Assembly (NCBI GenBank): GCA_963828735.1
Contig: CAWHFW010000005.1
Location: 1,024,001 to 1,088,000, forward strand
Source: an uncultured Gemmatimonadales bacterium
GTDB taxonomy: Bacteria; Gemmatimonadota; Gemmatimonadetes; Gemmatimonadales; GWC2-71-9
Length of the DNA stretch: 64,000 nucleotides
Direction of reading: 5' to 3'
Shown piece by piece: positions 22,940 through 61,338 of the stretch (position 1 is the stretch's first letter; each line of letters starts with the position of its first letter). The position numbers were made by a program, and so were the translations under genes. The notes under the pieces are model-generated. The model did no database searches. It had not been told where the DNA came from and was given only the letters and a program-made list of their open reading frames with translations.

Positions 22940-23740
22940 GGTCCTCCCTTCACAGGGCGTTGGATGCCAAAAACGGCGTGGATCTGGAGCGGCTCTCAGG
23001 AACGCCCGGGAAGCGGGGAAACTCCCTCGGATTCAAGGGGGCGGTTCGCGCTCGGCCTCAGGCATCTCGAGGTGGGCTTCGGTGCCGCAGGGCCGGAATC
23101 GCATGCCGACAATGGCCCAGTTCAGAAAACGTCGGCCGCCCCCTCGGAGCTAGCGGGACTCCGGGGAAGGCGCGGCGCCGTGCGGAACGCCGAAGCAGGG
23201 AAGTGCGCGGTCCCTGGTCCCCGTGGTTGTCCCCCAACAGGAACCATGAGGTTTCTTCGCTCGGGGTTGATACTGCAGGCGGGGACACCCTACTCAATAT
23301 CCGTCACATCCGTCACACGTACCTGTTTGCGGTAGTTAGGGAATGTCTTGGCGCGTGACGGTTCGTGTGACGGCTCGGTTTTGGAACCCCAGGTGTGCCC
23401 GAATGGGAACTTGCAGCAAAGGACGCATTCGCCAGGTTGAACGCTGGGGAACAAGGCCTCCCGAACAAAGTGGTGGACCGCATATTTGGGGTCAGAGCGC
23501 CGGAAGGATCGCTTCTCAAGGTCATGGGTGCGTGGATCGCGCCCGACGGGTCAGTTCATACGGTGCCCTCAAGGCTTCGGCGAGGCAACGACATCAAAAA
23601 CTTTGGCATTTCGTAGCACGCGGTGACGTGCTCAGACCTCGTAGCGATCCAGATCACAGCGTGTCCTCCGCCGTCCCTCTAGCATCCTATACACAGTCCC
23701 GAACTGCTGGGTCCGGCCGTGCAATCAAGCAGGAGGGCTT

Positions 23741-23896
23741 ATGACGCGAGCCAAGAAGTCGTTTCACCTCGAGCTGACCAAGGAGCAACAGGCGCTTATC
23801 CTGCAGAAGACCGGGATGGAAGCCAAGGAGTTGGAGTTGACGGATGCTGAGTTGAGAGTCCAGACGGAGCCTAAGCCGGTAGGCAATCAGCGTTGA
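23741..23896 (+). CDS. 51-aa small protein (MTRAKKSFHLELTKEQQALILQKTGMEAKELELTDAELRVQTEPKPVGNQR), copy 1
   Basis: AGGAGG RBS; ORF kept in copy 2 with mostly synonymous or conservative changes; below the ORF-track cutoff. Confidence 0.65.
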   Translation: MTRAKKSFHLELTKEQQALILQKTGMEAKELELTDAELRVQTEPKPVGNQR

Positions 23897-24165
23897 GAGC
23901 CCGGACCCTTCCGTCGCTCAAGGGGAGGGTTCTCCGCTTGGCGGGGTTGGGATTGAGCTAGTCTCTGCGGCTGGCCAGCTTTCCTCAACCGTCCACCCCA
24001 CCTCGGCCGGTGGGCAGCGGAAGGTGCGAATGTCGAGGACCGGCACCGGGCCGCGTACACCGAGATGGACGGCCGGCGAGACCTCTTTCATCGTCCATGA
24101 ATCGAGGTACATAGAACCAGTGCTACGCTAGCGCACCAACCGTGGTTCTGACGGGCCAACCTGTC

Positions 24166-24194
24166 TTGACGCCTGACGTACCGATCCCTACCGT
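24166..24194 (+). promoter_or_regulatory. Sigma70-type promoter of riboswitch module 1
   Basis: TTGACG-N17-TACCGT; same spacing in all five modules. Confidence 0.7.
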
Positions 24195-24198
24195 AGCA

Positions 24199-24336
24199 CC
24201 ACACCTCGACAAGGCACACCCGGCCAAAGCCGGGGCCGGAAAGCCACGGGTCCTCGCCTCCTCCGCGACGACAGGGGATCAGCCAGACTGACACTGCGCA
24301 GGTCCCACGACGGCCGGCTGGCGTTTACAGGTGTGG
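24199..24336 (+). promoter_or_regulatory. c-di-GMP-I (GEMM) riboswitch, degenerate copy 1
   Basis: GGCACACCCGGC-CAAA-GCCGGGGCCGGAAAGCCACGGGTCC; CACACCT/AGGTGTG closing stem; tetraloop and C46-equivalent are mutated. Confidence 0.6.
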
Positions 24337-24374
24337 ATACCTGCGCGCTAATCCCCGAAGTGGAGAACCTGACC

Positions 24375-24912
24375 ATGCGATCCCTGAGACTGACCGGAGT
24401 GGCCATGCTGGCGGCCGCGTTTCTGACCGGGTGCGACGCCGACTCGAGCCCCACCGCTCAAACGACCCCCGGCCTCACGGCGGACGTGACCGATCACAAC
24501 GTGGCGGACCACTTCAAGACCGTGGACCACCGTGACGTTCTCGGATGGAGTGAACCCGTGTAACGGCGAGCAAATCACCTTTACGGGAACCGCCGAAAGT
24601 CAGCTGACCGTTATTGGTTCTCGGGAGATGCTGGATGCGGGGAGCTTCCTGCACAGGGAGTACCAGCAGCACGTTCAGGCCACCGGCACCGGGTCGGAAA
24701 CCGGAGCCACCTACACAATCAATGACATCTTCCATGAGAGCTTCGATACGCCGAACGGTTCGCACGGCGCCCTCGGGGACCACGCGACGACGCACGTCAC
24801 CAGCGACCTGCCTGGCCTCAGCTTCATAGCCCACTTCGTTTTCCACCTTGTGGTCCCGTCGGGCAAGGACTTCAAGGTGACCACGGACCTGGACTGGGTG
24901 AAGTGCGGCTAA
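24375..24912 (+). CDS. Secreted beta-rich lipoprotein, hypothetical (single +1 frameshift near 24524)
   Basis: GGAG RBS, lipobox FLTGC; removing one base joins the signal part to NPCNGEQITFTG...VKCG; paralog of 1695-2216. Confidence 0.7.
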
Positions 24913-25078
24913 GGCCCTGCGGCAACGATTGCCATTCCATCGGCGTTCACATGCTGTTTCCGGCGCGTTCATATGACTCGACTTTCGCCACCGCGTTCGT
25001 GAATCGAGGTACGAGGTACATGGAACCAGTGCTGTGTACGCTAGCGCACCAACCTTCGCTGTAACGGGCCAATCTGTC

Positions 25079-25107
25079 TTGACGGCTCGCGTACCACTCC
25101 ATATCGT
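25079..25107 (+). promoter_or_regulatory. Sigma70-type promoter of riboswitch module 2
   Basis: TTGACG-N17-TATCGT. Confidence 0.7.
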
Positions 25108-25111
25108 AGCG

Positions 25112-25233
25112 CCACACCTCGACAAAGGCACACCCGGCGAAAGCCGGGGCCGCAACGCCACGGGTCCTCGCCTCCTCCGCGACGCCTCCTCCCGACGCCA
25201 CGCAGGACCCACGATCGCCGAGCTGCCGAAGGG
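25112..25233 (+). promoter_or_regulatory. c-di-GMP-I (GEMM) riboswitch copy 2
   Basis: CGACAAAGGCACAC-CCGGC-GAAA-GCCGG-GGCCGCAACGCCACGGGTCC...GATCGCCGAGCTGCCGAAGG: P2 with GNRA loop, P3 and 3' GCCGA. Confidence 0.8.
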
Positions 25234-25278
25234 TTTAGTGTCCGAACCGTTGGACGACTATCCACCCGGAGCCAGCCT

Positions 25279-25908
25279 ATGCGATCACTTCACGGCGCTG
25301 CACCCATCATTGCGGTCGTCCTGGTCCTTTCGTGCACCGAACGGACTGCTCCATCTGATGCTGCAGCACCTGCTGCACCAGTTGCGTTCGACTTCCTCAA
25401 CGGCCCTGACTCACCAGGGAACTCTGGCATCTTCAGATTTCAAGGCGCGATTCTCGAAATAACGTTCGACTTCAACGCGGGACTCATCAGCGTCCACGGG
25501 CTTACCAACTCGATTGCCGATCTGTGCAATGACCTGGGCGAATTTGATCTCATGGACATTCAGTTAAAGCCGCATTCCAGGGATGAGGTAAACAGTTTGA
25601 TCGTTGACCGCGAATCACCGGTGCAGATCCTGGCCTTCCCGCCCGAGGGGCTTGGGGAGGACTTTTGCTCAGACTTCAGCGGTGCTCCGGTTCTCTACAG
25701 TGGCACGGTCGCCTTTCGTGAAACCGATAACAACGAAACTCCCACAGGTACTGAAGGAGGTCGTGCGAACTCTTTCGGATGGAGGGCGCAAGGAGTGCTT
25801 GACGATCTTGTAAACGGTGGGCAGGTCCACTACAACGAGGAGGTCCGGCTTATTATCAGCCCACGCGATGAGTTCAAAGAGGCGGTGTCGAAGATAACGA
25901 TACACTAG
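25279..25908 (+). CDS. Secreted lipoprotein, hypothetical (paralog of 27700-28326)
   Basis: Signal with VLSC lipobox; two internal Cys; GTV..., DN, N.F...G...D...G and SP motifs shared with the 27700 gene. Confidence 0.7.
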   Translation: MRSLHGAAPIIAVVLVLSCTERTAPSDAAAPAAPVAFDFLNGPDSPGNSGIFRFQGAILEITFDFNAGLISVHGLTNSIADLCNDLGEFDLMDIQLKPHSRDEVNSLIVDRESPVQILAFPPEGLGEDFCSDFSGAPVLYSGTVAFRETDNNETPTGTEGGRANSFGWRAQGVLDDLVNGGQVHYNEEVRLIISPRDEFKEAVSKITIH

Positions 25909-25940
25909 CAGGTTTCGCTGCGTCATCGGTTCCTCGAGGG

Positions 25941-26140
25941 TCAGGCTGCTAGGCCGCGGCGCCGAAAGACGGGCTGGACAGGGTTAGAGGGCCAGATGGC
26001 TCGCAGGACGGGCTCGCCGTGGAGCTTGACCGCGAGCGCCAGCGCGCAGACACAGTCATCATGCATTCCGGCCGGGGCCGCGTACCGAACCCCGGCCGCT
26101 GTGTACTCGTACTGGAACGCCTCGAGCTCGTGAACCATCG
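25941..26140 (-). pseudogene. Phage terminase large subunit C-terminal fragment
   Basis: ELEAFQYEY....VRYAAPAGMHDDCVCALALA matches the HDDxVxALALA end of terminase nuclease domains; no ATPase part. Confidence 0.65.
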
Positions 26141-26249
26141 GACCATCGGGGCATCGGACCATCGGGGCAGGTGATGTCCCGACGGTGGATGGCACCAGCC
26201 AGCCCCTCCACCTCATCGGCGCGCGGAAAAGCAATCGGGCCAATTTGGC

Positions 26250-26278
26250 TTGACCGCTCGCGTACCAGCCTGTACCGT
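26250..26278 (+). promoter_or_regulatory. Sigma70-type promoter of riboswitch module 3
   Basis: TTGACC-N17-TACCGT. Confidence 0.65.
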
Positions 26279-26282
26279 AGCA

Positions 26283-26407
26283 CCACACCTCGACAAAGGC
26301 ACACCCGGTGAAAGCCGGGGTCGCAACGCCACGGGTCTTCACCTCCTCCGCGACGCCGGGCTCAAGGACGCCACGAAGGACCCTAAGACCGCCGGGCCGC
26401 TAAGAGG
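26283..26407 (+). promoter_or_regulatory. c-di-GMP-I (GEMM) riboswitch copy 3
   Basis: AAAGGCACACCCGGT-GAAA-GCCGGGGTCGCAACGCCACGGGTC...GAAGGACCCTAAGACCGCCGGGCCGC. Confidence 0.7.
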
Positions 26408-26434
26408 CCGCTCCCCTCACTCCGTGGAGGCTAT

Positions 26435-26875
26435 ATGTGGCGCGCTGTTCTTCTCTGTGCCTTGGGGTTGCTTGCTGCAGCCCCGGCTTACTCCCAGACC
26501 CCAAACGCAAACGAGCAAGCGGTGCTTAAGGCCTATCGCGCTCTCGACACGGCACAGTTCAAGAAGGACCGACCCACCATGGAGCGGTTGATGGCCGACG
26601 ACTATTCGTACACCCACTCCAATGGCACGGTGAACGACAGGGCCGCGGACATCAAGGAGACGATGTCCGACGACATCAAGTGGACCGGCACAAAGAGTGA
26701 TGATCTAAAAGTGCGGATGTATGGCGACGTCGCCGTAGTCACCGGGCAGTTGACGTTGACGGGTTCGGCTAAGAACTACGTCCCCGGGCCGCGCCGGTTT
26801 ACTGAGATCTGGGTTAAACGCGACGGGCATTGGCAGAATATCGGGGGCCAAACGACGCTTGTACCATCGAAATAG
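26435..26875 (+). CDS. Secreted NTF2-like (DUF4440) protein
   Basis: GGAGG RBS, Sec signal ending AYS; ADDYSYTHSNG, VRMYGDVAVVTG, RFTEIWVKRDG.WQ. Confidence 0.85.
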   Translation: MWRAVLLCALGLLAAAPAYSQTPNANEQAVLKAYRALDTAQFKKDRPTMERLMADDYSYTHSNGTVNDRAADIKETMSDDIKWTGTKSDDLKVRMYGDVAVVTGQLTLTGSAKNYVPGPRRFTEIWVKRDGHWQNIGGQTTLVPSK

Positions 26876-27077
26876 GAGAAATCACCTTCGCCTCGACACA
26901 GCTCAAGAAAGGCACACCGGTCCCTGGTGCCTGTCCCAATGGCGCTGCGCCGCCTGTCTACCCCTCTGCGCTCGTGGACGAGTGGACGGCGCGCGAACGG
27001 GATGGAACTGATGCACTCATACACGAGCGTCTGATCGAACTGCTGGGGCTCGGCCGTGCAATTAGGCAGGAGGGCTT

Positions 27078-27233
27078 ATGACCCGAGCTAAGAAGTCGTT
27101 TCACCTCGAGCTGACCAAGGAGCAACAGGCGCTTGTCCTGGAGAAAACAGGGATGGAAGCCAAAGAGTTGGAGCTGACGGATGCTGCCTTGAGAGTCCAG
27201 ACGGAGCCTAAGCCGGTAGGGAATCAGCGTTGA
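27078..27233 (+). CDS. 51-aa small protein, copy 2 (MTRAKKSFHLELTKEQQALVLEKTGMEAKELELTDAALRVQTEPKPVGNQR)
   Basis: AGGAGG RBS; three amino-acid differences from copy 1. Confidence 0.65.
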   Translation: MTRAKKSFHLELTKEQQALVLEKTGMEAKELELTDAALRVQTEPKPVGNQR

Positions 27234-27503
27234 GAGCCCGAACCCTTCCCTCGCTCAAGGGGAGGGTTCTCCGCTTGGCGGGGTTGGGATTGAGCTAGTC
27301 TCTGCGGCTGGCGAGCTTTCCTCAACGTCCACCCCGCCTCGCCCGGTGGGCGGCGGAAGGTGCGAATGTCGAGGACCGGCACCAGGCCGCGTACACCGAG
27401 ATGGACGGCCGGCGAGACCTCTTTCGTCCGTGAATCGAGCCGTGCCCGACCGGTTCTGCGTACGCTAGCGCACCAAGCTTGGTTCTGAACGGGCCAATCT
27501 GTC

Positions 27504-27532
27504 TTGACGTCTGGTGTACTGATCCCTAGCGT
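27504..27532 (+). promoter_or_regulatory. Sigma70-type promoter of riboswitch module 4
   Basis: TTGACG-N17-TAGCGT. Confidence 0.7.
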
Positions 27533-27536
27533 AGCA

Positions 27537-27670
27537 CCACACCTCGACAAAGGCACACCCGGCCAGAGCCGGGGCCGCAAAGCCACGGGTCCTCGCTGCC
27601 CTCCGCGACGCCGCACGGTATCCCGGCCTGACGCCACGAAGGACCCCACGACCGCCGAGCTGCCGAAGGG
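27537..27670 (+). promoter_or_regulatory. c-di-GMP-I (GEMM) riboswitch copy 4
   Basis: AAAGGCACACCCGGC-CAGA-GCCGGGGCCGCAAAGCCACGGGTCC...GGACCCCACGACCGCCGAGCTGCCGAAGG; loop is not GNRA. Confidence 0.75.
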
Positions 27671-27699
27671 AAGGCTGACTACTCCCACCGGAGGCTTCC

Positions 27700-28326
27700 A
27701 TGCGTCATTCCCTTCTGCTCCCCACAGCGGTGCTGGCTGGCGCTCTCGGGATCGGCTGCAGCGACCAGTCCGGCGTCACCAATCCCGATCCCGGCGGCAT
27801 GAGCTCCTATGACGGCACTCTATCTAATGCGACTGAGATCCAACGATTCGAAGACTTCTTGATAATTTCCCAGGCCCAAGCTGACCCGCCTCTCGTGGCC
27901 CTCGTCGGCGTGGGTCTTGAGGAGTTCCCCGATTTCTGCGCTGGGGCTGCGCCCCAAGAGCTGTCCGACTGGCTCGTTATCACCCACCCGACCCGAGAGG
28001 GGGTATCCAGGCACTACCTCATCAAAGACAAAGAGCTAAGCGCGCTCGTCTGGCAGGTAGATGTTGGGACCGGGGCCGATATCTGCCAGTTAGAGCCCCT
28101 CGCGGTCGGCACGGTCAACGTCACGCTCAACGACAACGAGGGTGACTTCTTCGAGACCGCTCCGGGCGCGAACGCCTTTTTCTACCAGTTCGTGGGCAAG
28201 GTGATTGACCAAGAGACCGGGCAAGAGTACCACCTCCAGGGGCGGTTTCAGATCCTCGTCTCACCCGATGGCACGTTCAAGTTCCTTCCGGTGCCCTTCC
28301 TCAGCCTGAGACCGATCGGCGGCTGA
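27700..28326 (+). CDS. Secreted lipoprotein, hypothetical
   Basis: GGAGG RBS, signal with GIGC lipobox; paralog of 25279-25908. Confidence 0.7.
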   Translation: MRHSLLLPTAVLAGALGIGCSDQSGVTNPDPGGMSSYDGTLSNATEIQRFEDFLIISQAQADPPLVALVGVGLEEFPDFCAGAAPQELSDWLVITHPTREGVSRHYLIKDKELSALVWQVDVGTGADICQLEPLAVGTVNVTLNDNEGDFFETAPGANAFFYQFVGKVIDQETGQEYHLQGRFQILVSPDGTFKFLPVPFLSLRPIGG

Positions 28327-28344
28327 GGTCAGTTAGCGTCGTAC

Positions 28345-28374
28345 AAGGCGGGGGTGGCGCTCCCACCCTCGCCT
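28345..28374 (+). terminator. GC-rich hairpin after the lipoprotein gene
   Basis: AGGCGGGGGTGG-CGCTC-CCACCCTCGCCT stem-loop; no clear U-tract. Confidence 0.35.
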
Positions 28375-28617
28375 GGCACTGCTCGATTGCTCCCGGCATC
28401 AGCCTAAACTCGATAGCGCTCCAAGCGATGGCCGTCGAGTCACGCGGCTGCGGCGCCCGGGGCACCTCGGGAAGGTTTGAAACGGGGACCTACACCCAGA
28501 TGGAGGGACGCAGAGACCTGTTCCACCGAACCCTAGCTAGGTACGACCGTCCCTCTGTCGCACCCGCGCTCGGACAGTAGATTCAGTTGTCCCCTCACTC
28601 AAAAAGAGCGTAGCCCG

Positions 28618-28945
28618 ATGGCTGGCCCGTCCCTGCCGTCTCGTCCGCTGGTCGTCGTGGTCGACGACACGCTGCCGGTGCGCCTGCTGGTCTCCCGCGC
28701 TCTTTCTGAGGCAGGGTTCGACGTGCTCAGCGCGCCTGATGGCGCGGCTGCCGCCACGCTCATCCTCGGTCTCAAGTCGCCGCCCGACTTGGTCATCACC
28801 GATATGCGGATGCCGGCCATGGATGGTGAAGAGCTCGGACGCTGGGTCGGGCTGCGCTATCGGCAGGTGCCGCTGATTTTCATCTCCGGCTTCATGCCCG
28901 GGGACACCGGGGAGCTGCCGGGCACCTTTCTTTCCAAGCCCTTCG
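28618..28945 (+). pseudogene. Single-domain response regulator (REC), truncated after the KPF motif
   Basis: VVVVDD, PDLVITDMRMP.MDG, ISG, FLSKPF; the final helix is replaced by sequence running into an inverted riboswitch remnant. Confidence 0.6.
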
Positions 28946-28974
28946 GGTCACACACGCGGACAAAACCCCCTCAC

Positions 28975-29062
28975 AGGCGAGCCGGTCGGAGAGTCCTGCG
29001 AGGCGTCAGTAGCTGGCTTGGGAGCCGGCGGCGCGGAGGAGGCGAGGATCCGTCGCTTTGCG
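28975..29062 (-). promoter_or_regulatory. Degenerate 3' remnant of the riboswitch module
   Basis: Minus strand CGCAAAGCGACGGATCCTCGCCTCCTCCGCG...GACGCCTCGCAGGAC resembles P3 of the other copies. Confidence 0.55.
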
Positions 29063-29791
29063 AAACTTTCCCTCGCACGAAGCGTCATAGTACGCCGTAC
29101 TGCGCCGGGAAAACGTCGGGTTGATGTTGCCACCCATGTTGCCCAGGAGGTACGCTTACAGGCGTCGCGATCTCCTGAGGCGTAGTATCCCGGCGAACAG
29201 TAGGGCCGCAGCGGCGACGAAGGATAGTGGCTGGCGCGGATCGCTCAGGAGTGCGCCGGCAAGGAACGCGAGAGCTGCAATCACCAGCAGAAAGCCTGCC
29301 TTCCGATTCCGGTCCATACCTCCACCGTACATGTCCGGCCCCGCGATGGGAAGCGCCTGAGACCCACGAGCGCCCGAACTGCGCTAGTGCAGCTCGGCCA
29401 ATGCGGACTGGATACGCGTCTCGACTGCTGCCCACGTCGGCCGATCCTTGAGCATTGCGTCCAGGGCGATGCCGTCCAGGGACACCACGGCCGACCGCTC
29501 GCCAATGAACACCCGTACGCCGACCGGGCGCGGCGAATCGTGCTCCCCCGTCACCTGCGTCCGGACCGCCTCGTTCCCCGCGATCGCCGTGGCAGCGCTG
29601 AGCGCCATCCCGCGCACGACGTTGACTGCCTCACAAGGGTCTACCATGACAGCCTCCCGCTCAATGCTCCTGAATTGCCCGGGCGGTGCCCAGCCCGCTT
29701 GGGCCGAAACGCTGGCCCACCCGCCAACATACGCGCCGGGACCGTACCCGGTCAGTCCAAACGTGATGCTCAGCTCATGCAGGCGATCGGT

Positions 29792-30175
29792 CTAGGATGG
29801 GAGAGCCACCACCGCCGCGACAAGGGCCTCCGGGGTGAAGGGCTTCGGGAGGACCGGTCCTCGGTATTCGCCCAGTTGAAAGCCCTGGCCCGTCGTGAGC
29901 AGGATCGGCACGGTGGGCCACCGCTTGGCCATGATCCGCGCCAGTTCGTCGCCCCTCAGGTGCGGCATCACCACGTCGCTGACCACCGCCCGCACCGCGT
30001 TCGCTCCCAGGCGATCCAGCAGACTCACCGCCTTCTCGCCGTCCGGCGCCTCCAACGCAGGAAGACCCGCATCCCTCAGGATGCGGGCCGTCATCCGGCA
30101 CACCGCCGGTTCGTCATCGACCACCAGCACAGCCCGCTCATCGAGCGGTCGGGCAGCGGCAATCATCGGTCGCAC
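29792..30175 (-). CDS. Single-domain response regulator (CheY-like)
   Basis: VLVVDDE, VVSDVVMP, LTTG, PKPFTPEAL. Confidence 0.8.
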   Translation of the reverse strand: MRPMIAAARPLDERAVLVVDDEPAVCRMTARILRDAGLPALEAPDGEKAVSLLDRLGANAVRAVVSDVVMPHLRGDELARIMAKRWPTVPILLTTGQGFQLGEYRGPVLPKPFTPEALVAAVVALPS

Positions 30176-30285
30176 CTGGAGGGGGCTTGTGCCCCAATCT
30201 TACCGCCCGTTTGCCCTACCCGCTAGACGCCGATCCGACGACGGTGATGTGGCTTCGCATTTGGTGCAGGAATCTTCCCCCCGTC

Positions 30286-30362
30286 GCCGCGCTGCTGTTG
30301 TCTCGTCAGTACGCCAGTGTCCCATCTAAGGTGAACTCACCCTGGCCAGCACCCGTAATCGG
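30286..30362 (-). repeat. 77-bp direct repeat with 31963-32039 (3' end of the 31983-32543 gene), flanking the subtilase gene
   Basis: One mismatch (GGG/GGA, synonymous). Confidence 0.9.
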
Positions 30363-30420
30363 GTAGGCTCGATGATCGGCCGGCGGGCCCTCTCCTCGTC
30401 AATCGGTGGGACGAGAGCCG

Positions 30421-31881
30421 CTACTTTGACACCACGGCGAGCGCGTTCACTTGGCCATGGCCGTAGAAGCCGTTGTACCCCGCGCCGCCCTGGCAGGTCG
30501 CAGGGAAAAATCCACCGGGATTGAACGGATTGGGCGGGCAGGCCACCGGATCTGCCGTGCGGGTAATCAGGGCCTGCACCGCACCCGGGGACAACTTGCC
30601 GTGCGCGGAGATCGCCAAGGCCGCAACACCGGCGACGTGCGGCGACGCCATCGACGTTCCCTCGCTGAATGCCCAGCCGCCCGGGACGGTCGACAGGACC
30701 AATCCCTCAACGAAATCCTGGGTTTGGAATGGGAAGTCCCCGCCTGGCGCGACCACCTGGACGACTCCGACCCCGTAGTTCGAGTAGAAGGACTTCTGCA
30801 TCGCGTGGCCGTTGGCCGACACGCCGATCACGCCTGGGATCTCCACCGGGATGACGACGCATGCGTTCGTCACCTCACGTGTCTGCGGCGTGCCGTTGTC
30901 CGGACTAATCTCGTCGATGTTCCGCTTCGAGAGATCCTGGTTCTCGTTAGTCAGTGCCGCGACGACGGTCACGCCCTGCTGCATCGCGTAGCGGATCGCC
31001 CGCTGCTCGGCCTTCCAGATCGCCCGCTGACCCGGGTCATTACGGCAGTTGAAGAGCCAAGGGTCGGCGAAGTAGCTGTTGTTCGTCACGTCCAGGTGGT
31101 GCGAGCCCGCCCACATGAACGCGCAGATCACCGCCTCGGGGAAGATGAATCCGGCGGCGGTGGCGGCCTTGATTGCCGCGATTTTCACGTTGGGCGCGAC
31201 GCCGACGATCCCGATGCCGTTCTTGGCCGCGGCGATAGTGCCAGCCGTATGGGTGCCGTGACCGTTGTCGTCGGCCCAGGCGGCCGGGCTAGGATTCGCG
31301 ACGCCGCCGACGCAGGAGGCGCTGTTCGCGAAGTCCACGTTCGCCGCCAGGTCGGGGTGCGTAAAGTCGAGTCCGCTGTCGATGTCGCCGACGACGACGG
31401 ACGGGCTCCCACCGTTGATCGCGCGGGCCTCGGGGTCATGGATCTGCACCATGTCCCACTGAAGCGGGGACAAGGGGTCGTCCCCGGGAGCTGGTGTGCT
31501 GCCGGGCAACGGCCCGGCGGGGCGCATTTTCTCGGTGAGCCGCGTCGCGAAGCCGGCCGTGGCCGTTGAACCCTCGACCCTCTTGTCCTTCACGATCTTG
31601 TCGGCGAACGACGAGCTCGCTGACCGCGCGATCGCAACACCAATCGCGTCATAGCGCTCGACGAGCGTTCCACCGGCGCCGGCAATTGTCTTGGCGGCAT
31701 CGCGCGGGACTGCCGTTCCGTTGTAGAGGATGACATAGGTGCTCGCCGCGCCAGCGCTCGCGCGGGATGAGGCTACGACGTTTGGCGGGGTTCCAGGATC
31801 GGTGGGGGTGGGATTCTCGCTGCACGCGAGAGCGACGATCCCGAGCGCGACGGCCGGGAGCAGTGGGGAGATGCGTTTCAT
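30421..31881 (-). CDS. S8 subtilisin-like serine peptidase, lipoprotein
   Basis: Lipobox ALAC; DIDSG, HGTHTAGTI, GTSMASPHVAG. Confidence 0.9.
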   Translation of the reverse strand: MKRISPLLPAVALGIVALACSENPTPTDPGTPPNVVASSRASAGAASTYVILYNGTAVPRDAAKTIAGAGGTLVERYDAIGVAIARSASSSFADKIVKDKRVEGSTATAGFATRLTEKMRPAGPLPGSTPAPGDDPLSPLQWDMVQIHDPEARAINGGSPSVVVGDIDSGLDFTHPDLAANVDFANSASCVGGVANPSPAAWADDNGHGTHTAGTIAAAKNGIGIVGVAPNVKIAAIKAATAAGFIFPEAVICAFMWAGSHHLDVTNNSYFADPWLFNCRNDPGQRAIWKAEQRAIRYAMQQGVTVVAALTNENQDLSKRNIDEISPDNGTPQTREVTNACVVIPVEIPGVIGVSANGHAMQKSFYSNYGVGVVQVVAPGGDFPFQTQDFVEGLVLSTVPGGWAFSEGTSMASPHVAGVAALAISAHGKLSPGAVQALITRTADPVACPPNPFNPGGFFPATCQGGAGYNGFYGHGQVNALAVVSK

Positions 31882-31925
31882 AGGGACCCTCTCTTGAGCA
31901 GGGACGCCGTCCTGTTGACCGCCCA

Positions 31926-31965
31926 TAGGAGGCGAGGACCCGTGGCTTTGCGGCCCCGGGGTGCC
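31926..31965 (-). promoter_or_regulatory. Internally deleted riboswitch fragment upstream of the subtilase
   Basis: Minus strand GGCACCCCGGGGCCGCAAAGCCACGGGTCCTCGCCTCCT; P2 collapsed. Confidence 0.6.
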
Positions 31966-31982
31966 GCGCTGCTGTTGTCTCG

Positions 31983-32543
31983 TCAGTACGCCAGTGTTCC
32001 ATCTAAGGTGAACTCACCCTGGCCAGCACCCGTAATCGGATTGATCTGCGCCGTGCCCGCCAAGTCTGCCGTGCCGCTCGCCTGCGTGAAGCGGCCGCTG
32101 CCGCCTGAGAAGGCCTGCGTGCCCGCGAACGTGACCGTCGCGGTCGTCGGGCTGGTGAACGTGATCTGGGCGGTGCCGGTGAACGTCGAATGCAGCTCAT
32201 CGCCGTTCGCCGCCACGTAGACGCCGCTATTGGTGAGCGCCCCGGTGGTCACGTCGACCGTTTGCGTGACCACCGCATGAGTCAGCCCGAGATGGGAGAC
32301 CCGGCAGGTGTACTCGATCCGCTGGACCTCGATCGGGGGCGGCGGGCTCAGTCGGGTCACCACCGTGGTGCAGCGGCCGGACAGGGGGCGAGTTACGAGG
32401 GAGGGCTCAGCGCGTGCCGCCGCCGACAGCGTGGTCCGATCGGTAGCGTTCGACGACGTCGGGGCGGTGGCGTAATCGGGCGCGTCGCAAGCACCCACGG
32501 CCATCGCGAGGGCTGCAGCAGGATGCAAGCGTATGAGACGCAT
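31983..32543 (-). CDS. Secreted beta-rich lipoprotein, hypothetical
   Basis: GGAGG RBS, signal with VGAC lipobox; SHLG, ANGDEL and GGSGRF..ASG beta-rich motifs. Confidence 0.7.
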   Translation of the reverse strand: MRLIRLHPAAALAMAVGACDAPDYATAPTSSNATDRTTLSAAARAEPSLVTRPLSGRCTTVVTRLSPPPPIEVQRIEYTCRVSHLGLTHAVVTQTVDVTTGALTNSGVYVAANGDELHSTFTGTAQITFTSPTTATVTFAGTQAFSGGSGRFTQASGTADLAGTAQINPITGAGQGEFTLDGTLAY

Positions 32544-32588
32544 ACAGACCTCCGAGGCGAGACGTGGGCGTGCAAACAGCGCGCAGCG

Positions 32589-32707
32589 CTCGGCAGCTCG
32601 GCGGTCGTGGGGTCCTTCGTGGCGTCGACGGAGGGCGTCGCGGAGGAGGGAGAGGACCCGTGGCTTTGCGGCCCCGGCTTTCGCCGGGTGTGCTCTTGTC
32701 GAGGTGT
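32589..32707 (-). promoter_or_regulatory. c-di-GMP-I family riboswitch copy 5 with A at the G20-equivalent position (cGAMP-type variant)
   Basis: Minus strand CTCGACAAGAGCACACCCGGC-GAAA-GCCGGGGCCGCAAAGCCACGGGTCC...GACCGCCGAGCTGCCGAG; the best-conserved aptamer core. Confidence 0.8.
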
Positions 32708-32712
32708 TCGCT

Positions 32713-32741
32713 ACGGTACGAAGCGGTACATCAGGCGTCAA
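32713..32741 (-). promoter_or_regulatory. Sigma70-type promoter of riboswitch module 5
   Basis: TTGACG-N17-TACCGT on the minus strand. Confidence 0.7.
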
Positions 32742-32959
32742 GACCGATTGGCCTGTCTTGGCGACATGGGAGCTACGATTGGTGCGCTAGCGTACACAGG
32801 CCTGGTCGTGCGTGCCCCGATTCACGGACGATGAAAGAGGTCTCACCGCTTCTGACTGGAACTGAGCTGAAGAGCAAGATCTCTGATCTCTACGTGGCGC
32901 TCGCGTGCGATATGGAAAACCGGTTGCGGCGCTAAACCGGCTCTAGAGGGTCTCCCTCA

Positions 32960-38377: not shown

Positions 38378-38479
38378 GTCACTCAATGAGTGCTACCATT
38401 GGTCCATTCGTTGGCCCCACGGCTCATGAAGGTGTTCAAGAGGCTTCAACCATCCCTCAGAATAATGGGGGGTTAAGAG
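38371..38479 (+). repeat. About 110-bp direct repeat with 50271-50379 (panE start, upstream region and site core)
   Basis: GCATGTCACTCAATGAGTGCTA...TCCATTCGTTGGCCC...GCTCATGAAGG...CCATCCCTCAGAATAATGGGGG(G)TTAAGAG in both. Confidence 0.85.
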
Positions 38480-38503
38480 AGAGATAGAGCTCAGCTGTTC
38501 ACC
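38444..38503 (+). repeat. Palindromic site family, site A
   Basis: CTTCAACCATCCC-TCAGAATAAT-GGGGGGTTAAGAGAGAGATAGAG...GTTCACC. Confidence 0.85.
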
Positions 38504-38774
38504 TTCCCTTGGTTCAGAGCTGACCATGGAACCGACGACAGGCCGTGGCAGGAGTCGACCGCTGCGGTATATAGGTGCATCTTGAGCAACGCCCACCTGC
38601 TTCATTCGCAGCGTCATTACGGCAGCTATCAATCGGGTTTGAGCGCAGAAGTGCCCTCGGCACGTAGGGTTAGAGCGCACGGGACAGGATGATTGATCTG
38701 ACACTGCGTGATTTACACTGCGGACACCGCAGTCTAATTCTAGTTAGGCCTCACTCGACCCTCCGGAGGGCGGC

Positions 38775-44978: not shown

Positions 44979-45060
44979 GGTGAACTGAGCGCTATCTCTA
45001 TCTCTTAACCCCTCAGAATAATGGGGGGTGAAGAGATAGACGGGCCCGCTCGGTTCACCC
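44979..45060 (+). repeat. Palindromic site family, site B (both arms)
   Basis: GGTGAAC...CTCTATCTCTTAACCCC-TCAGAATAAT-GGGGGGTGAAGAGATAGA...GGTTCACC. Confidence 0.85.
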
Positions 45061-45208
45061 TCTCGGCCGTCCCTCCGATTGACCGGTGAGGAGCAGAGGG
45101 AGTCGGCCCAGTTCACCTCAATGGCTGACGTCGGCTCTCGGCACAAAGACTTGCTAGCAATCCGCCGCAGCCGGGGCCACATTCCAGGCGTCTCCACCCG
45201 GCAGTCCC

Positions 45209-47878: not shown

Positions 47879-48031
47879 CGGGGCCGCCGTGCGATGCGTA
47901 AAGCGTCGTGAGTCCGTCTGGCGTCCTCGGCGAGTCCCAGACCCCGCTCGGCAGCCTTCTCACCCGCCGGATCCATCCCACTGTTCACATGGCAGTCAAC
48001 CACTCTGAAGGCAGATCTAAGCCCGAGGAAA

Positions 48032-48090
48032 GGTGAACAGCCCGGCTCTATCTCTCTCTTAACCCCTCAGAATAATGGGGGGTTAAGAGC
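48032..48090 (+). repeat. Palindromic site family, site C
   Basis: GGTGAACAG...CTCTATCTCTCTCTTAACCCC-TCAGAATAAT-GGGGGGTTAAGAG; the left arm is the near-exact inverted complement of the right arm of site A. Confidence 0.85.
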
Positions 48091-48159
48091 AAGGGCGAGG
48101 CTTCGGATAGGCGACCTGCGGCCGCTTTCTTCGATGCCCTTGCAGCTCAACTCTATCCG

Positions 48160-54974: not shown

Positions 54975-55033
54975 CTTTATACCCTTCATTCCTTTGGAGG
55001 GTTAAGAGATAGGTTGGGGTGATCAGTTCACCC
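54975..55033 (+). repeat. Palindromic site family, site E
   Basis: CCTTCATTCCTTTGGAGG (identical to 50413-50430) followed by GTTAAGAGATAGG...CAGTTCACCC. Confidence 0.8.
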
Positions 55034-55133
55034 GACTACATTCTTACTGGCAGAATCAGCAGGTGCACGCCAGACGTCCAAATCGGTTGATTAGCCCCCT
55101 GACCTGGCTCGGTTCAGGAACTGAGAGCTACCC

Positions 55134-59616: not shown

Positions 59617-61338
59617 CTACGCAACGGCGTTTCTGCCCGCGGCCTTGGCCCGGTAGAGCGCGCGGTCCGCGCTCACCAGCAGGTCGCCCTCCGACGGCAC
59701 CCGCGGATCGAACTCGGCGAGGCCGACGCTCACGGTGATGAGCCCCGGCGGATAGCCCAGCCGACGCCCGATCCCCTCGATACCCGCCCGGAGCGCTTCC
59801 GCCACCCGGGCCCCGCCCTGAAGATCGGTGCGGGTCAAGATCACCACGAATTCGTCACCGCCGTAGCGCGCGGCCACGTCCGACGCGCGTACCGCGTTCC
59901 GGATCTCACCCGCCACGGCGCGGAGGACCTCGTTCCCCGCCTCGTGGCCGTACTGGTCGTTCACGTCCTTGAACTTGTCGAGGTCGAGAAACAGGACCGC
60001 GAACCCTTCGTTGCTGCGCTTGCTGCGCTCCACCTCGAACGCCAGCCGGTCGCGCAGCAGCCGGTAGGTCGTGAGCCCCGTCAGCGTGTCCACCGCCGCG
60101 GCCCGCTGCGCCTCCGCCACCCGGCGCTCCTGGTACGGCGTGCACTGCCGCATGCTGGCCCGGCCGAGCACCGCCGCCTCGGCGAACCGCCGGCAGGTGT
60201 CGAACCCGCAGGCCCGGCAGTCCCATGCCTTCCCGTTGGGACCCAGCCCGATCTGCTCCAGCACGCCGCGCACCGCCACGGGGTCCGGCGGGATCCGGCG
60301 CGGCTTGAACGCGAAGGTCGCGCCCACGCTGGCGACCACCCCCGCGTCCACCACCGGCTGCCGGCTCCGCGGAGCCTCCACGCTCGCCAGCAGCTCGCGG
60401 CGCCAGAACAGCCGCTCCTGCGGGCCGGACAGCGGGTGGTCCAGGATCCCCTCGGACGAGAGGATGTCCACGAAGCCCAGGTCCAGCCGGTCCACCGCCA
60501 CCGCCCGCGCCACCGCCGGGAGGGCGTCGAGCCCGCGGATCTTCCGGAACCGCCGGCTCGACTGCCGCGCCTCCTCGAGCAGCGCCAGGGGAAGTCCCCC
60601 GGCCGCGCTCAGGTGCCGTCGGCGCTCCTCCGGCACCCGGTGGAACCAGGTCGGCTGCGACAGCACGTCCACCCCGCGAATGCGGAAGAGCTGGTCGAGA
60701 TCGCCGAACGTGATGGCCGCATCGAGATCAGGGCTGCTGACCGGCGGGCACACCCCCGCGTACGCGATCCTGAGCCCATCCCCGTGCTGAGCCCGCAGAT
60801 ATCGGGCCTCGGCGACCGCCGGGACCGTCACCGGCGCCAGGTAGGGCAGAAGCTCCGGGTACTGCGCCCGCACCGTCTCGACCACGACCGGGTCGGTGGA
60901 CCGGATGAGGGTGCCCCAGGGCTCCTCTTCCCACAGCTTAAGGTATTCAGCCGCAACGAGTTCGTCGCCGATCACCCCTCGGGTGACCGTACGGAACCCC
61001 GCTTCATAGCAGGCGTTGATCAGCTGTTCTGGACTGGCTGGGTAGAAATACGCCACCGATTCGGGGCTCAGGATGAGCACCCCGTCGCCCTGCGAGGCGA
61101 TGGCAAGAGCCCGCCCGATCTCGCCGTTTACCTTGACCGCCCCGTGGGGGCAGGCCGGAAGGCAACGGCCACACCGGATACAGGCCTCGTCCACCACCTG
61201 CAACAGCAACGGATCGTCGCCCGCCACCGCGACCGCATCGGTGGGGCACACTCGCACACACGCGAGGCACGCGACACATAACTCGGCGTCGATGACGAAA
61301 TTCAAGAGACCCGACCGGTCGGGGGCAGGGGGAGCCAT
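59617..61338 (-). CDS. GGDEF cyclase fused to a 2x[4Fe-4S] ferredoxin, a degenerate [FeFe]-hydrogenase-like domain and an FeS domain
   Basis: CVACLACVRVCP, CIRCGRCLPACP, DCRACGFDTC...C; DLDKFKDVNDQYGH, RASD I-site, RYGGDEF. Confidence 0.85.
   Translation of the reverse strand: MAPPAPDRSGLLNFVIDAELCVACLACVRVCPTDAVAVAGDDPLLLQVVDEACIRCGRCLPACPHGAVKVNGEIGRALAIASQGDGVLILSPESVAYFYPASPEQLINACYEAGFRTVTRGVIGDELVAAEYLKLWEEEPWGTLIRSTDPVVVETVRAQYPELLPYLAPVTVPAVAEARYLRAQHGDGLRIAYAGVCPPVSSPDLDAAITFGDLDQLFRIRGVDVLSQPTWFHRVPEERRRHLSAAGGLPLALLEEARQSSRRFRKIRGLDALPAVARAVAVDRLDLGFVDILSSEGILDHPLSGPQERLFWRRELLASVEAPRSRQPVVDAGVVASVGATFAFKPRRIPPDPVAVRGVLEQIGLGPNGKAWDCRACGFDTCRRFAEAAVLGRASMRQCTPYQERRVAEAQRAAAVDTLTGLTTYRLLRDRLAFEVERSKRSNEGFAVLFLDLDKFKDVNDQYGHEAGNEVLRAVAGEIRNAVRASDVAARYGGDEFVVILTRTDLQGGARVAEALRAGIEGIGRRLGYPPGLITVSVGLAEFDPRVPSEGDLLVSADRALYRAKAAGRNAVA

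Follow-up and report, generated by a model that had tools for sequence, protein, structure and literature searches.

What are the repeated elements between positions 24080 and 32850 of the window, a 64,000-nucleotide (nt) stretch of the genome (G000) of an uncultured Gemmatimonadales bacterium, how did they come to stand together, and do they control the genes behind them? An earlier note had described five related modules and two fragments here, each full module a promoter and a cyclic-dinucleotide riboswitch ahead of a different exported protein. The modules and fragments lie where that note had placed them, and their GEMM-I identity, conserved promoter-like sequence, surface or exported cargo and portability with cargo exchange are supported. 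The cassette is not specific to this array: the unit belongs to a genus-wide family, a long-P3 GEMM-I (cyclic di-GMP, c-di-GMP, class I) subfamily centred on one Gemmatimonadales genus, of which this array represents one site. We consider it probable that the locus is a Gemmatimonadales GEMM-I cluster, each element with a promoter-like sequence and a different exported protein, the units likely moving as promoter-to-stop cassettes by recombination in their cores and likely being ON with c-di-GMP. What was directly observed for this reading is the match to the aptamer model, the spacing of the promoter, the bias among the cargoes, the ends of the cassettes as seen in two further genomes, and the debris of the island. 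Below, C4 and C5 denote sequences of G000, and L-numbers denote loci.

Identity of the modules

Copies 2 to 5 exceeded the 35-bit cut-off of the Rfam covariance model RF01051, whereas copy 1 fell below it because C46 and C92 are replaced by G; with a model built for the subfamily (long form) copy 1 scored 71.6 bits. The required pairing of G21 with C46 and of C22 with G45 fails in copy 1. A47 is a pocket base of the c-di-GMP class I aptamer. G20 and C92 are further pocket bases (PMC6140456); all three are present in copies 2, 3 and 4, copy 5 has A at position 20 and copy 1 has G at position 92. At the P3 receptor, into which a GNRA loop on P2 would dock, these elements have CCUCG in place of the CUAAG strand of the Rfam consensus; in their other sequence features copies 2 to 4 agree with RF01051. 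The modules are made up as follows.

24124 to 24135 (no strand): 12-bp palindrome 5' of the -35 box, with further copies at 25037, 27461 and 32783
24166 to 24194 (+): copy 1 promoter-like boxes, TTGACG-17-TACCGT
24201 to 24326 (+): copy 1 aptamer, damaged (C46 and C92 to G), under the Rfam cut-off
24378 to 24912 (+): cargo 1, predicted lipoprotein, no known family, frameshifted
25079 to 25107 (+): copy 2 promoter-like boxes, TTGACG-17-TATCGT
25117 to 25230 (+): copy 2 long-P3 GEMM-I aptamer, G20/A47/C92, RF01051 40.8 bits
25279 to 25908 (+): cargo 2, predicted lipoprotein of 209 amino acids (aa); unit 25078 to 25919 recurs in L057, 92.6%
26250 to 26278 (+): copy 3 promoter-like boxes, TTGACC-17-TACCGT
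26288 to 26404 (+): copy 3 long-P3 GEMM-I aptamer, G20/A47/C92, RF01051 48.0 bits
26435 to 26875 (+): cargo 3, DUF4440 (NTF2-like), signal peptide-like start, E 1.4e-21
27504 to 27532 (+): copy 4 promoter-like boxes, TTGACG-17-TAGCGT
27542 to 27667 (+): copy 4 long-P3 GEMM-I aptamer, G20/A47/C92, CAGA loop, RF01051 39.4 bits
27700 to 28326 (+): cargo 4, predicted lipoprotein of 208 aa with 11 strands in its predicted beta fold; 27542 to 28327 recurs in L132, 91%
31983 to 32543 (-): cargo 5, predicted lipoprotein of 186 aa from a family of at least 115 proteins, without a Pfam family
32589 to 32704 (-): copy 5 long-P3 GEMM-I aptamer, A20/A47/C92 (cGAMP-type signature), RF01051 44.2 bits
32713 to 32741 (-): copy 5 promoter-like boxes, TTGACG-17-TACCGT

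Most of the sequence hallmarks first described stood with small corrections. The P2 loop is GAAA in copies 2, 3 and 5, as had been seen, and CAAA in copy 1 and CAGA in copy 4; the GGCACAC motif reads AGCACAC in copy 5, and GCTGCCGA is exact in copies 2, 4 and 5 only. The promoter boxes are TTGACG or TTGACC and TACCGT, TATCGT or TAGCGT at 17 nt, with G in copy 4 where the consensus had given H. The distance from aptamer end to ATG, put at 25–45 nt, measured 30–51 nt.

We collected 136 distinct elements by a pattern scan plus about 40 of roughly 50 long Rfam matches; 127 had a recognisable 3' end, 113 were left below 95% identity, and 112 were aligned, one more running off its contig. P1, P2 and P3 pairs held in 100%, 98.5% and 89% of cells of this alignment, all above slid controls. 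The P2 loop was GAAA in 82/112 members and another NAAA loop or CAGA in 30/112, and columns 18 and 37 (the unpaired A24 and A43 positions) co-varied, C occurring with C or U in 79 of 80 cases and A with A or G in 22 of 23. Membership of the c-di-GMP-I-GGC family (RF03167) was rejected: its scores ran from 34 to 53 bits, those of 49–53 bits being higher than with RF01051, yet all lay below its own 59-bit cut-off, and base 47 is A in these elements and G in the model consensus. Like the Vc2 prototype of RF01051 from Vibrio cholerae, the elements have the G20 and C92 contacts, the P1-P2-P3 layout, a model score over the cut-off and a position upstream of surface and secreted genes. Unlike it, they have a conserved extra P3 arm of ~40–55 nt instead of a short receptor hairpin, an NAAA P2 loop, mostly C at position A24 and a fixed promoter ~20–25 nt upstream, and they are unusually uniform in sequence across dozens of unrelated cargoes. 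Judged by sequence, they are a c-di-GMP class I (GEMM-I) riboswitch subfamily with an extra P3 arm.

The promoter pattern TTGA(C/A)N-17-TA occurred within 90 nt upstream of 98/136 elements, compared with 14/1768 gene upstream regions and 20/20000 random windows, and the end of the -10 box mostly lay 20–25 nt 5' of the aptamer core. The consensus points to a sigma70-type promoter. A generic promoter scan, which found copy 2 only and was at chance level because the -10 box is far from TATAAT, was superseded by this family-based test. The 12-bp palindrome occurs five times in the genome, every time ahead of a module promoter.

Calling a downstream frame succeeded for 93 of 111 elements. Lipoprotein-like proteins made up 47/93 of these cargoes, compared with 127/1768 background genes (7%) under the same rule, and the cargoes fell into 66 clusters, 51 of them singletons. 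In the array, cargoes 2 and 4 are distant relatives (25% over 122 aa, E 4e-5), which fits the description of three lipoprotein families. The DUF4440 assignment of cargo 3, which begins like a signal peptide and has no lipobox cysteine, was borne out. Cargoes 1, 2, 4 and 5 had no family match in Pfam, NCBIfam or PHROG, a profile search gave no match in the PDB, and matches in the ESM Atlas were to unnamed clusters only. Cargo 4 was modelled as an 11-strand beta protein on an unstructured tether (mean predicted local distance difference test score 67, predicted template modelling score 0.62); the model gave no Foldseek match at E 0.001 (best Z 5.3), a result that speaks neither for a known nor for a new fold.

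G000 carries 11 RF01051 matches, or 12 with the long-form model, plus fragments. RF01051 matched 31/41 related genomes, long matches being common in the genus, and a pattern scan of species genomes found at least 120 stretches; among the matches listed, 74/80 were from Gemmatimonadota, mostly Gemmatimonadales. In an order-wide sample of 101 genomes, including one unpublished genome (G177) on which alone no claim is based, no score above 75 bits came from outside the genus except in three genomes, with few candidates scored per genome. GEMM-I riboswitch regulons of surface genes are already known from Geobacter and Clostridioides difficile (PMC6456294, PMC11477304, PMC7266159). The latter has a dozen class I riboswitches before small, surface and secreted proteins including a protease (PMC11477304); the elements here differ in bringing their own conserved promoter and in having neighbourhoods that change from genome to genome. 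Our literature search, made largely at the level of titles and abstracts, found no paper on this Gemmatimonadales subfamily; tables of earlier surveys may include Gemmatimonadota riboswitches or Hypr candidates. The elements are set apart by a promoter in a fixed place, a conserved arm, a mixture of bases at position 20 and cassette-like movement.

Extra arm and expression platform

When the aptamer register is formed, the extra arm makes a helix of 14 pairs that includes four recurring C-A mismatches. In 13 of these pairs both partners vary among members, and taken as a whole the structure did better than shuffled and slid controls. In a second register the 3' strand slides onto GGGUCCUCG, a pairing possible in 80–97% of 92 typical members per position. 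This slipped register is predicted to be lower in energy in 53/70 members (median 2.2 kcal/mol), to exclude aptamer P3 and to free the aptamer 3' strand. A terminator-like arm (duplex ≤ -14 kcal/mol) followed 59/93 members, compared with 18/81 control windows; this hairpin arm after the aptamer is complementary to the freed strand, and at least five T in the next ten bases were present in 32/111. G000 itself has a terminator-bearing member at C5:2524695. The pilM ON switch has the same terminator layout as these relatives of the window copies (PMC9262584).

In the mechanism that we propose, RNA polymerase would begin transcription a few bases ahead of the aptamer. With no ligand bound, the P3 extra arm would slip to its second register (GGGUCCU-CG with CG-A-AGGACCC), freeing the aptamer 3' strand, which in most relatives would combine with the downstream arm into a terminator; in copies 2 to 5, which have no such arm, the ribosome-binding site would have to be paired by the freed strand or by the CCUCC bulge when exposed, as is predicted for copy 5 only. 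Ligand would then lock the aptamer register and allow expression. The repeated promoter-aptamer core would in addition serve as a homology anchor for cargo exchange and copy deletion.

Several observations weigh against this account. The terminator-arm scores of copies 2 to 5 were -7.1, -10.9, -9.5 and -9.1, compared with a control median of -11.1. The distal arm pairs in only 66% of cells, and the covariation seen for the slipped register (8/14 compared with 9/78, Fisher p 0.0004) vanished once only independent pairs were counted (p about 1), which leaves the slip hypothetical. An anti-Shine-Dalgarno role of the CCUCCUCC bulge found no support, as the elements' own ribosome-binding sites paired with it no better than those of others and its pairing did not differ between members with and without a terminator. 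Across the family, the freed strand likewise paired no better with its own ribosome-binding sites than with others' (p 0.37). Since copies 2 to 5 have no arm and the family has no excess of such pairing, whether and how the window copies regulate is the weakest step. Further, the search patterns themselves prescribed C92 and the element's 5' half, so that their invariance is partly built in; lipobox and start calls were made with crude regular expressions; many copies are decayed; and members at L097, L100 and L111 align over the whole 1.6 kb and were inherited with their flanks.

Gating of every cargo by a second messenger, as the earlier note had it, is not supported, since the pocket of copy 1 is broken, copies 2 to 5 are without a terminator-like arm and five further copies in the genome are fragmentary. 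Could a strong promoter, then, be what mainly spreads, with the aptamer a passenger in these copies and the cargo expressed without second-messenger control? We regard this as possible though doubtful. The missing terminator arm fits it, as do two degenerate copies in G000 (copy 1 and C5:560485) and five aptamer fragments (28975, 31927, C5:584550, C5:562828 and C4:263273), the last of which (L204) has only the promoter and P2 and runs directly into a lipoprotein gene, the rest of the aptamer being deleted. On a tree of the 112 members, built from short sequences, position 20 requires at least 27 changes (shuffled 35.3, standard deviation 1.8), and the P2 loop has relaxed to forms other than GAAA, mostly NAAA, in the 30 members given above. 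Against a mere passenger, every pocket base is kept in four of the five copies despite 16–26% divergence of the cores, and in the ligand-free fold predicted for copy 5 the freed strand pairs with, and would bury, the ribosome-binding site (z -1.7). The sequence GGAGGTC, able to pair with the freed strand, follows 12/47 family sites compared with 27/329 others (p 0.001, kin not being independent).

Base 20 and the ligand

The A20 of copy 5 and an enzyme with a Hypr signature were both absent from the earlier note. Among the 112 members position 20 was G in 73, A in 28, C in nine and U in two. It switches between units with the same cargo: the L057 orthologue of copy 2 has A20, and copy 2 and L057, like L063 and L064, form near-isogenic pairs for this base. 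In copy 5, A20 was unchanged in public contigs of X1 and X6, from two studies. A20 is the mark of cyclic GMP-AMP (cGAMP) riboswitches, and a Vc2 aptamer with G20A bound c-di-GMP at 53 nM and cGAMP at 120 nM (PMC6140456).

The domain PF00990 was found in 25/25 genus genomes with 7–14 GGDEF domains each; G000 has 10, and four of the six parsed have the canonical Asp, from which the host would be able to make c-di-GMP. Hypr enzymes combine a Ser/Thr specificity position with a GGDEF motif (PMC6456294), which we applied as a sequence signature only (Ser/Thr at 347/348 with GGDEF). One membrane-bound GGDEF protein of G000 (C5:2312863-2314716, +; L201:3948-5720) has Ser at this position and the GGDEF motif, and both marks were kept in 73/74 full-length homologues, which bear names such as Sulfuricaulis, Paraburkholderia, Thiodiazotropha and Acidobacteria. 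This family is a candidate cGAMP synthase outside Deltaproteobacteria.

These two marks invite a two-messenger regulon, in which the G20 copies would read c-di-GMP and copy 5 would read 3',3'-cGAMP made by the membrane-bound Hypr-type enzyme. Geobacter offers a likeness in its GEMM-Ib riboswitches and the Hypr GGDEF enzyme GacA: many copies per genome (17 GEMM-I riboswitches in G. sulfurreducens; PMC6456294), A20 as in copy 5, a Ser/GGDEF enzyme in the same genome, and a terminator that excludes the aptamer, seen here in relatives of the window copies. The A20 mark, its confirmation in contigs of two studies and the conserved Ser/GGDEF pairing favour such a regulon. In contrast to Geobacter, however, a single array here combines G20 with A20 copies, the base also swaps between units with the same cargo, and the enzyme is membrane-bound and belongs to another phylum. 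No Ser/Thr-type GGDEF protein was found in 24 sister genomes (58–99% complete; five further matches were not GGDEF frames), yet A20 copies occur genus-wide; a co-distribution of A20 with a Hypr-type enzyme was not found. In another family of the order, GacA-like GGDEF proteins (GHLxGS ... GGDEF) were present in 4/8 genomes (L207, L208, L209 and L210) and an RF01051 match in only 1/8. Altogether we judge a division of labour between two messengers unlikely. Because A20 RNAs still bind c-di-GMP, c-di-GMP appears the likelier common signal of our preferred c-di-GMP cluster, with cGAMP possible for copy 5, which would answer to both c-di-GMP and 3',3'-cGAMP.

Three observations lie beside this question. 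A short-form GEMM element with A20 and a six-base P2 loop (C5:1204068-1204155, -; relatives at L036, L038, L039 and L040) is kept with its gene in several genus genomes, the gene encoding a small protein that, by eye, resembles an anti-sigma factor antagonist. A C20 subgroup with a different arm stands always before related lipoproteins (C5:459394-459500; L049, L050, L110, L161, L164 and L199), and its ligand is not predictable from known rules. In the window, 27 kb from the array, a GGDEF domain with Asn at the specificity position is fused to 4Fe-4S and FeFe-hydrogenase-like domains (59620-61338, -), possibly a redox- or gas-sensing cyclase.

Probable movement of the units, and island history

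L057, in another genome of the genus, matches window positions 25078-25919 at 92.6%; the match starts 1 nt ahead of the -35 box, stops 11 nt past the stop codon of cargo 2 and is bordered by unrelated stretches of ~160 and ~210 bases. Copies 1, 4 and 5, instead, share the upstream DNA of copy 2, palindrome included, and together with the L057 boundaries this makes the promoter-aptamer core a junction of two histories. Similarly, L132 matches 27542-28327 at 91%, from the copy 4 aptamer to the stop codon. A subtilase homologue stands directly behind a full module at L169, and homologues of cargo 5 at L090 and L127 have no module directly upstream. Recombination between repeated cores is the mechanism of movement that we infer; no recombinase was identified, no search aimed at one having been made. 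Around the modules of the window lie the following pieces.

23709 to 24092 (+): duplicated block, a 51-aa open reading frame (23741 to 23896) and the 3' end of a reading frame found upstream of copies 1, 4 and 5; repeated at 27046 to 27428, 94–95%
25962 to 26150 (-): C-terminal remnant of a phage terminase large subunit, matching five phage records with a TerL annotation (E 2e-5 to 9e-5)
28618 to 28950 (+): receiver-domain gene (PF00072 over residues 12–91), its 3' end running into the 28975 fragment
28975 to 29063 (-): decayed aptamer fragment (P3 and extra arm), no cargo
30277 to 30362 (-): repeat of the final 18 codons of cargo 5 with their flank, 94% to 31954 to 32039
30421 to 31881 (-): subtilase (S8), lipobox-like N-terminus, E 4.9e-41, 102-nt gap to cargo 5
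31927 to 31959 (-): aptamer fragment of 33 nt, without promoter

Both fragments are real, the first lying on the minus strand without cargo; the second is followed by the subtilase (PF00082), as had been noted, and the subtilase is likely the second gene of the copy 5 transcript. The island debris comprises the 380-nt duplication, the 86-nt repeat of the cargo 5 end, the clipped receiver gene and the terminase remnant. Phage morons are self-contained promoter-gene units inserted in prophage DNA. The units here resemble them in having their own promoter, one gene and unrelated flanks, with the terminase remnant between copies 2 and 3, and differ in carrying a riboswitch. No intact prophage is seen here; 40 frames of this region gave one weak PHROG match, on the TerL remnant. 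An integron gene cassette was rejected, as each unit has its own promoter-like boxes and no attC-type inverted repeat was reported at the unit ends.

Portability was upheld, whereas simple repeated duplication was not: the five cores are 74–84% alike and no closer to one another than to copies in other genomes (77–85%). They are old paralogues, gathered with local rearrangements in an island with a terminase remnant rather than formed as a fresh tandem array. A recent in-place tandem duplication of one unit followed by cargo divergence could call on the two local repeats, on the 60–90 nt that copies 1, 2, 4 and 5 share upstream of the -35 box and on the distant homology of cargoes 2 and 4. Besides the divergence of the cores, however, cargoes 1, 3 and 5 are unrelated to 2 and 4, and other genomes hold far closer matches to each cargo and its leader; such duplication is largely refuted for the cargoes, accounts for the upstream blocks only and is highly improbable as an origin of the array. 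That the extra arm is an opposite-strand DNA hairpin serving as an attC-like recombination site, as its four C-A mismatches (about 69–78/112 each), which become G-T pairs on the other strand, might hint, is extremely unlikely given sense-strand G-U pairs in some members (L044 and L137), cassette ends at promoter and stop codon rather than at the arm, and units that bring their own promoter.

Public contigs from four studies covered the region piecewise (28–30 of 30 bins), with no contig spanning it. At 24524, contigs of three runs from two studies have one base fewer, which would bring both halves of cargo 1 into one frame; the split of cargo 1 is probably an assembly error or a strain difference. 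Single-base indels relative to public contigs at 24524, 24315, 24210 and 32708 suggest residual assembly errors in the window. Contig joints that might point to strain-level loss of whole modules sit within repeats and were not counted as evidence. No RNA run was listed for the region, which speaks neither for nor against expression.

Some features of the window stand apart from the modules. The duplicated 51-aa open reading frame (23741-23896 and 27078-27233, +) matches no known family and is kept at ~80% DNA identity in 3/102 other genus genomes (L223–L225). An imperfect palindromic repeat around a CAGAATAAT core occurs at 38435-38512, 44991-45062, 48023-48116 and 54983-55035; the three exact cores in the genome all lie in the window, between Ser/Thr kinase-like genes, and the repeat could be a recombination or target site. 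A weak guanidine-II match inside the subtilase gene (31474-31520, -; 28.9 bits with a cut-off of 32) is probably due to chance.

Taken further, the c-di-GMP cluster could be a mobile regulatory plug-in, whose core would recruit surface genes by recombination and switch by sliding of the arm register with or without a terminator, whose base 20 would retune it between c-di-GMP and 3',3'-cGAMP, and for which the membrane-bound Hypr-type family (with homologues that bear names from Sulfuricaulis, Paraburkholderia and Acidobacteria) would supply cGAMP outside Deltaproteobacteria. We think it rather improbable that this holds in full. If binding proves ordinary and the extra arm idle, the subfamily would amount to an expansion of a well-known class within one lineage. 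Most riboswitch regulons come to view when finished; here their assembly and dismantling are visible, with one promoter-aptamer core before at least 66 kinds of cargo, and a single genome has copies that are intact, decayed or reduced to the promoter. The natural pairs that differ at base 20 provide a direct test of the trade between c-di-GMP and cGAMP specificity, and for an abundant soil lineage a few dozen lipoprotein families, so far unstudied, can be named as likely outputs of cyclic-dinucleotide signalling.

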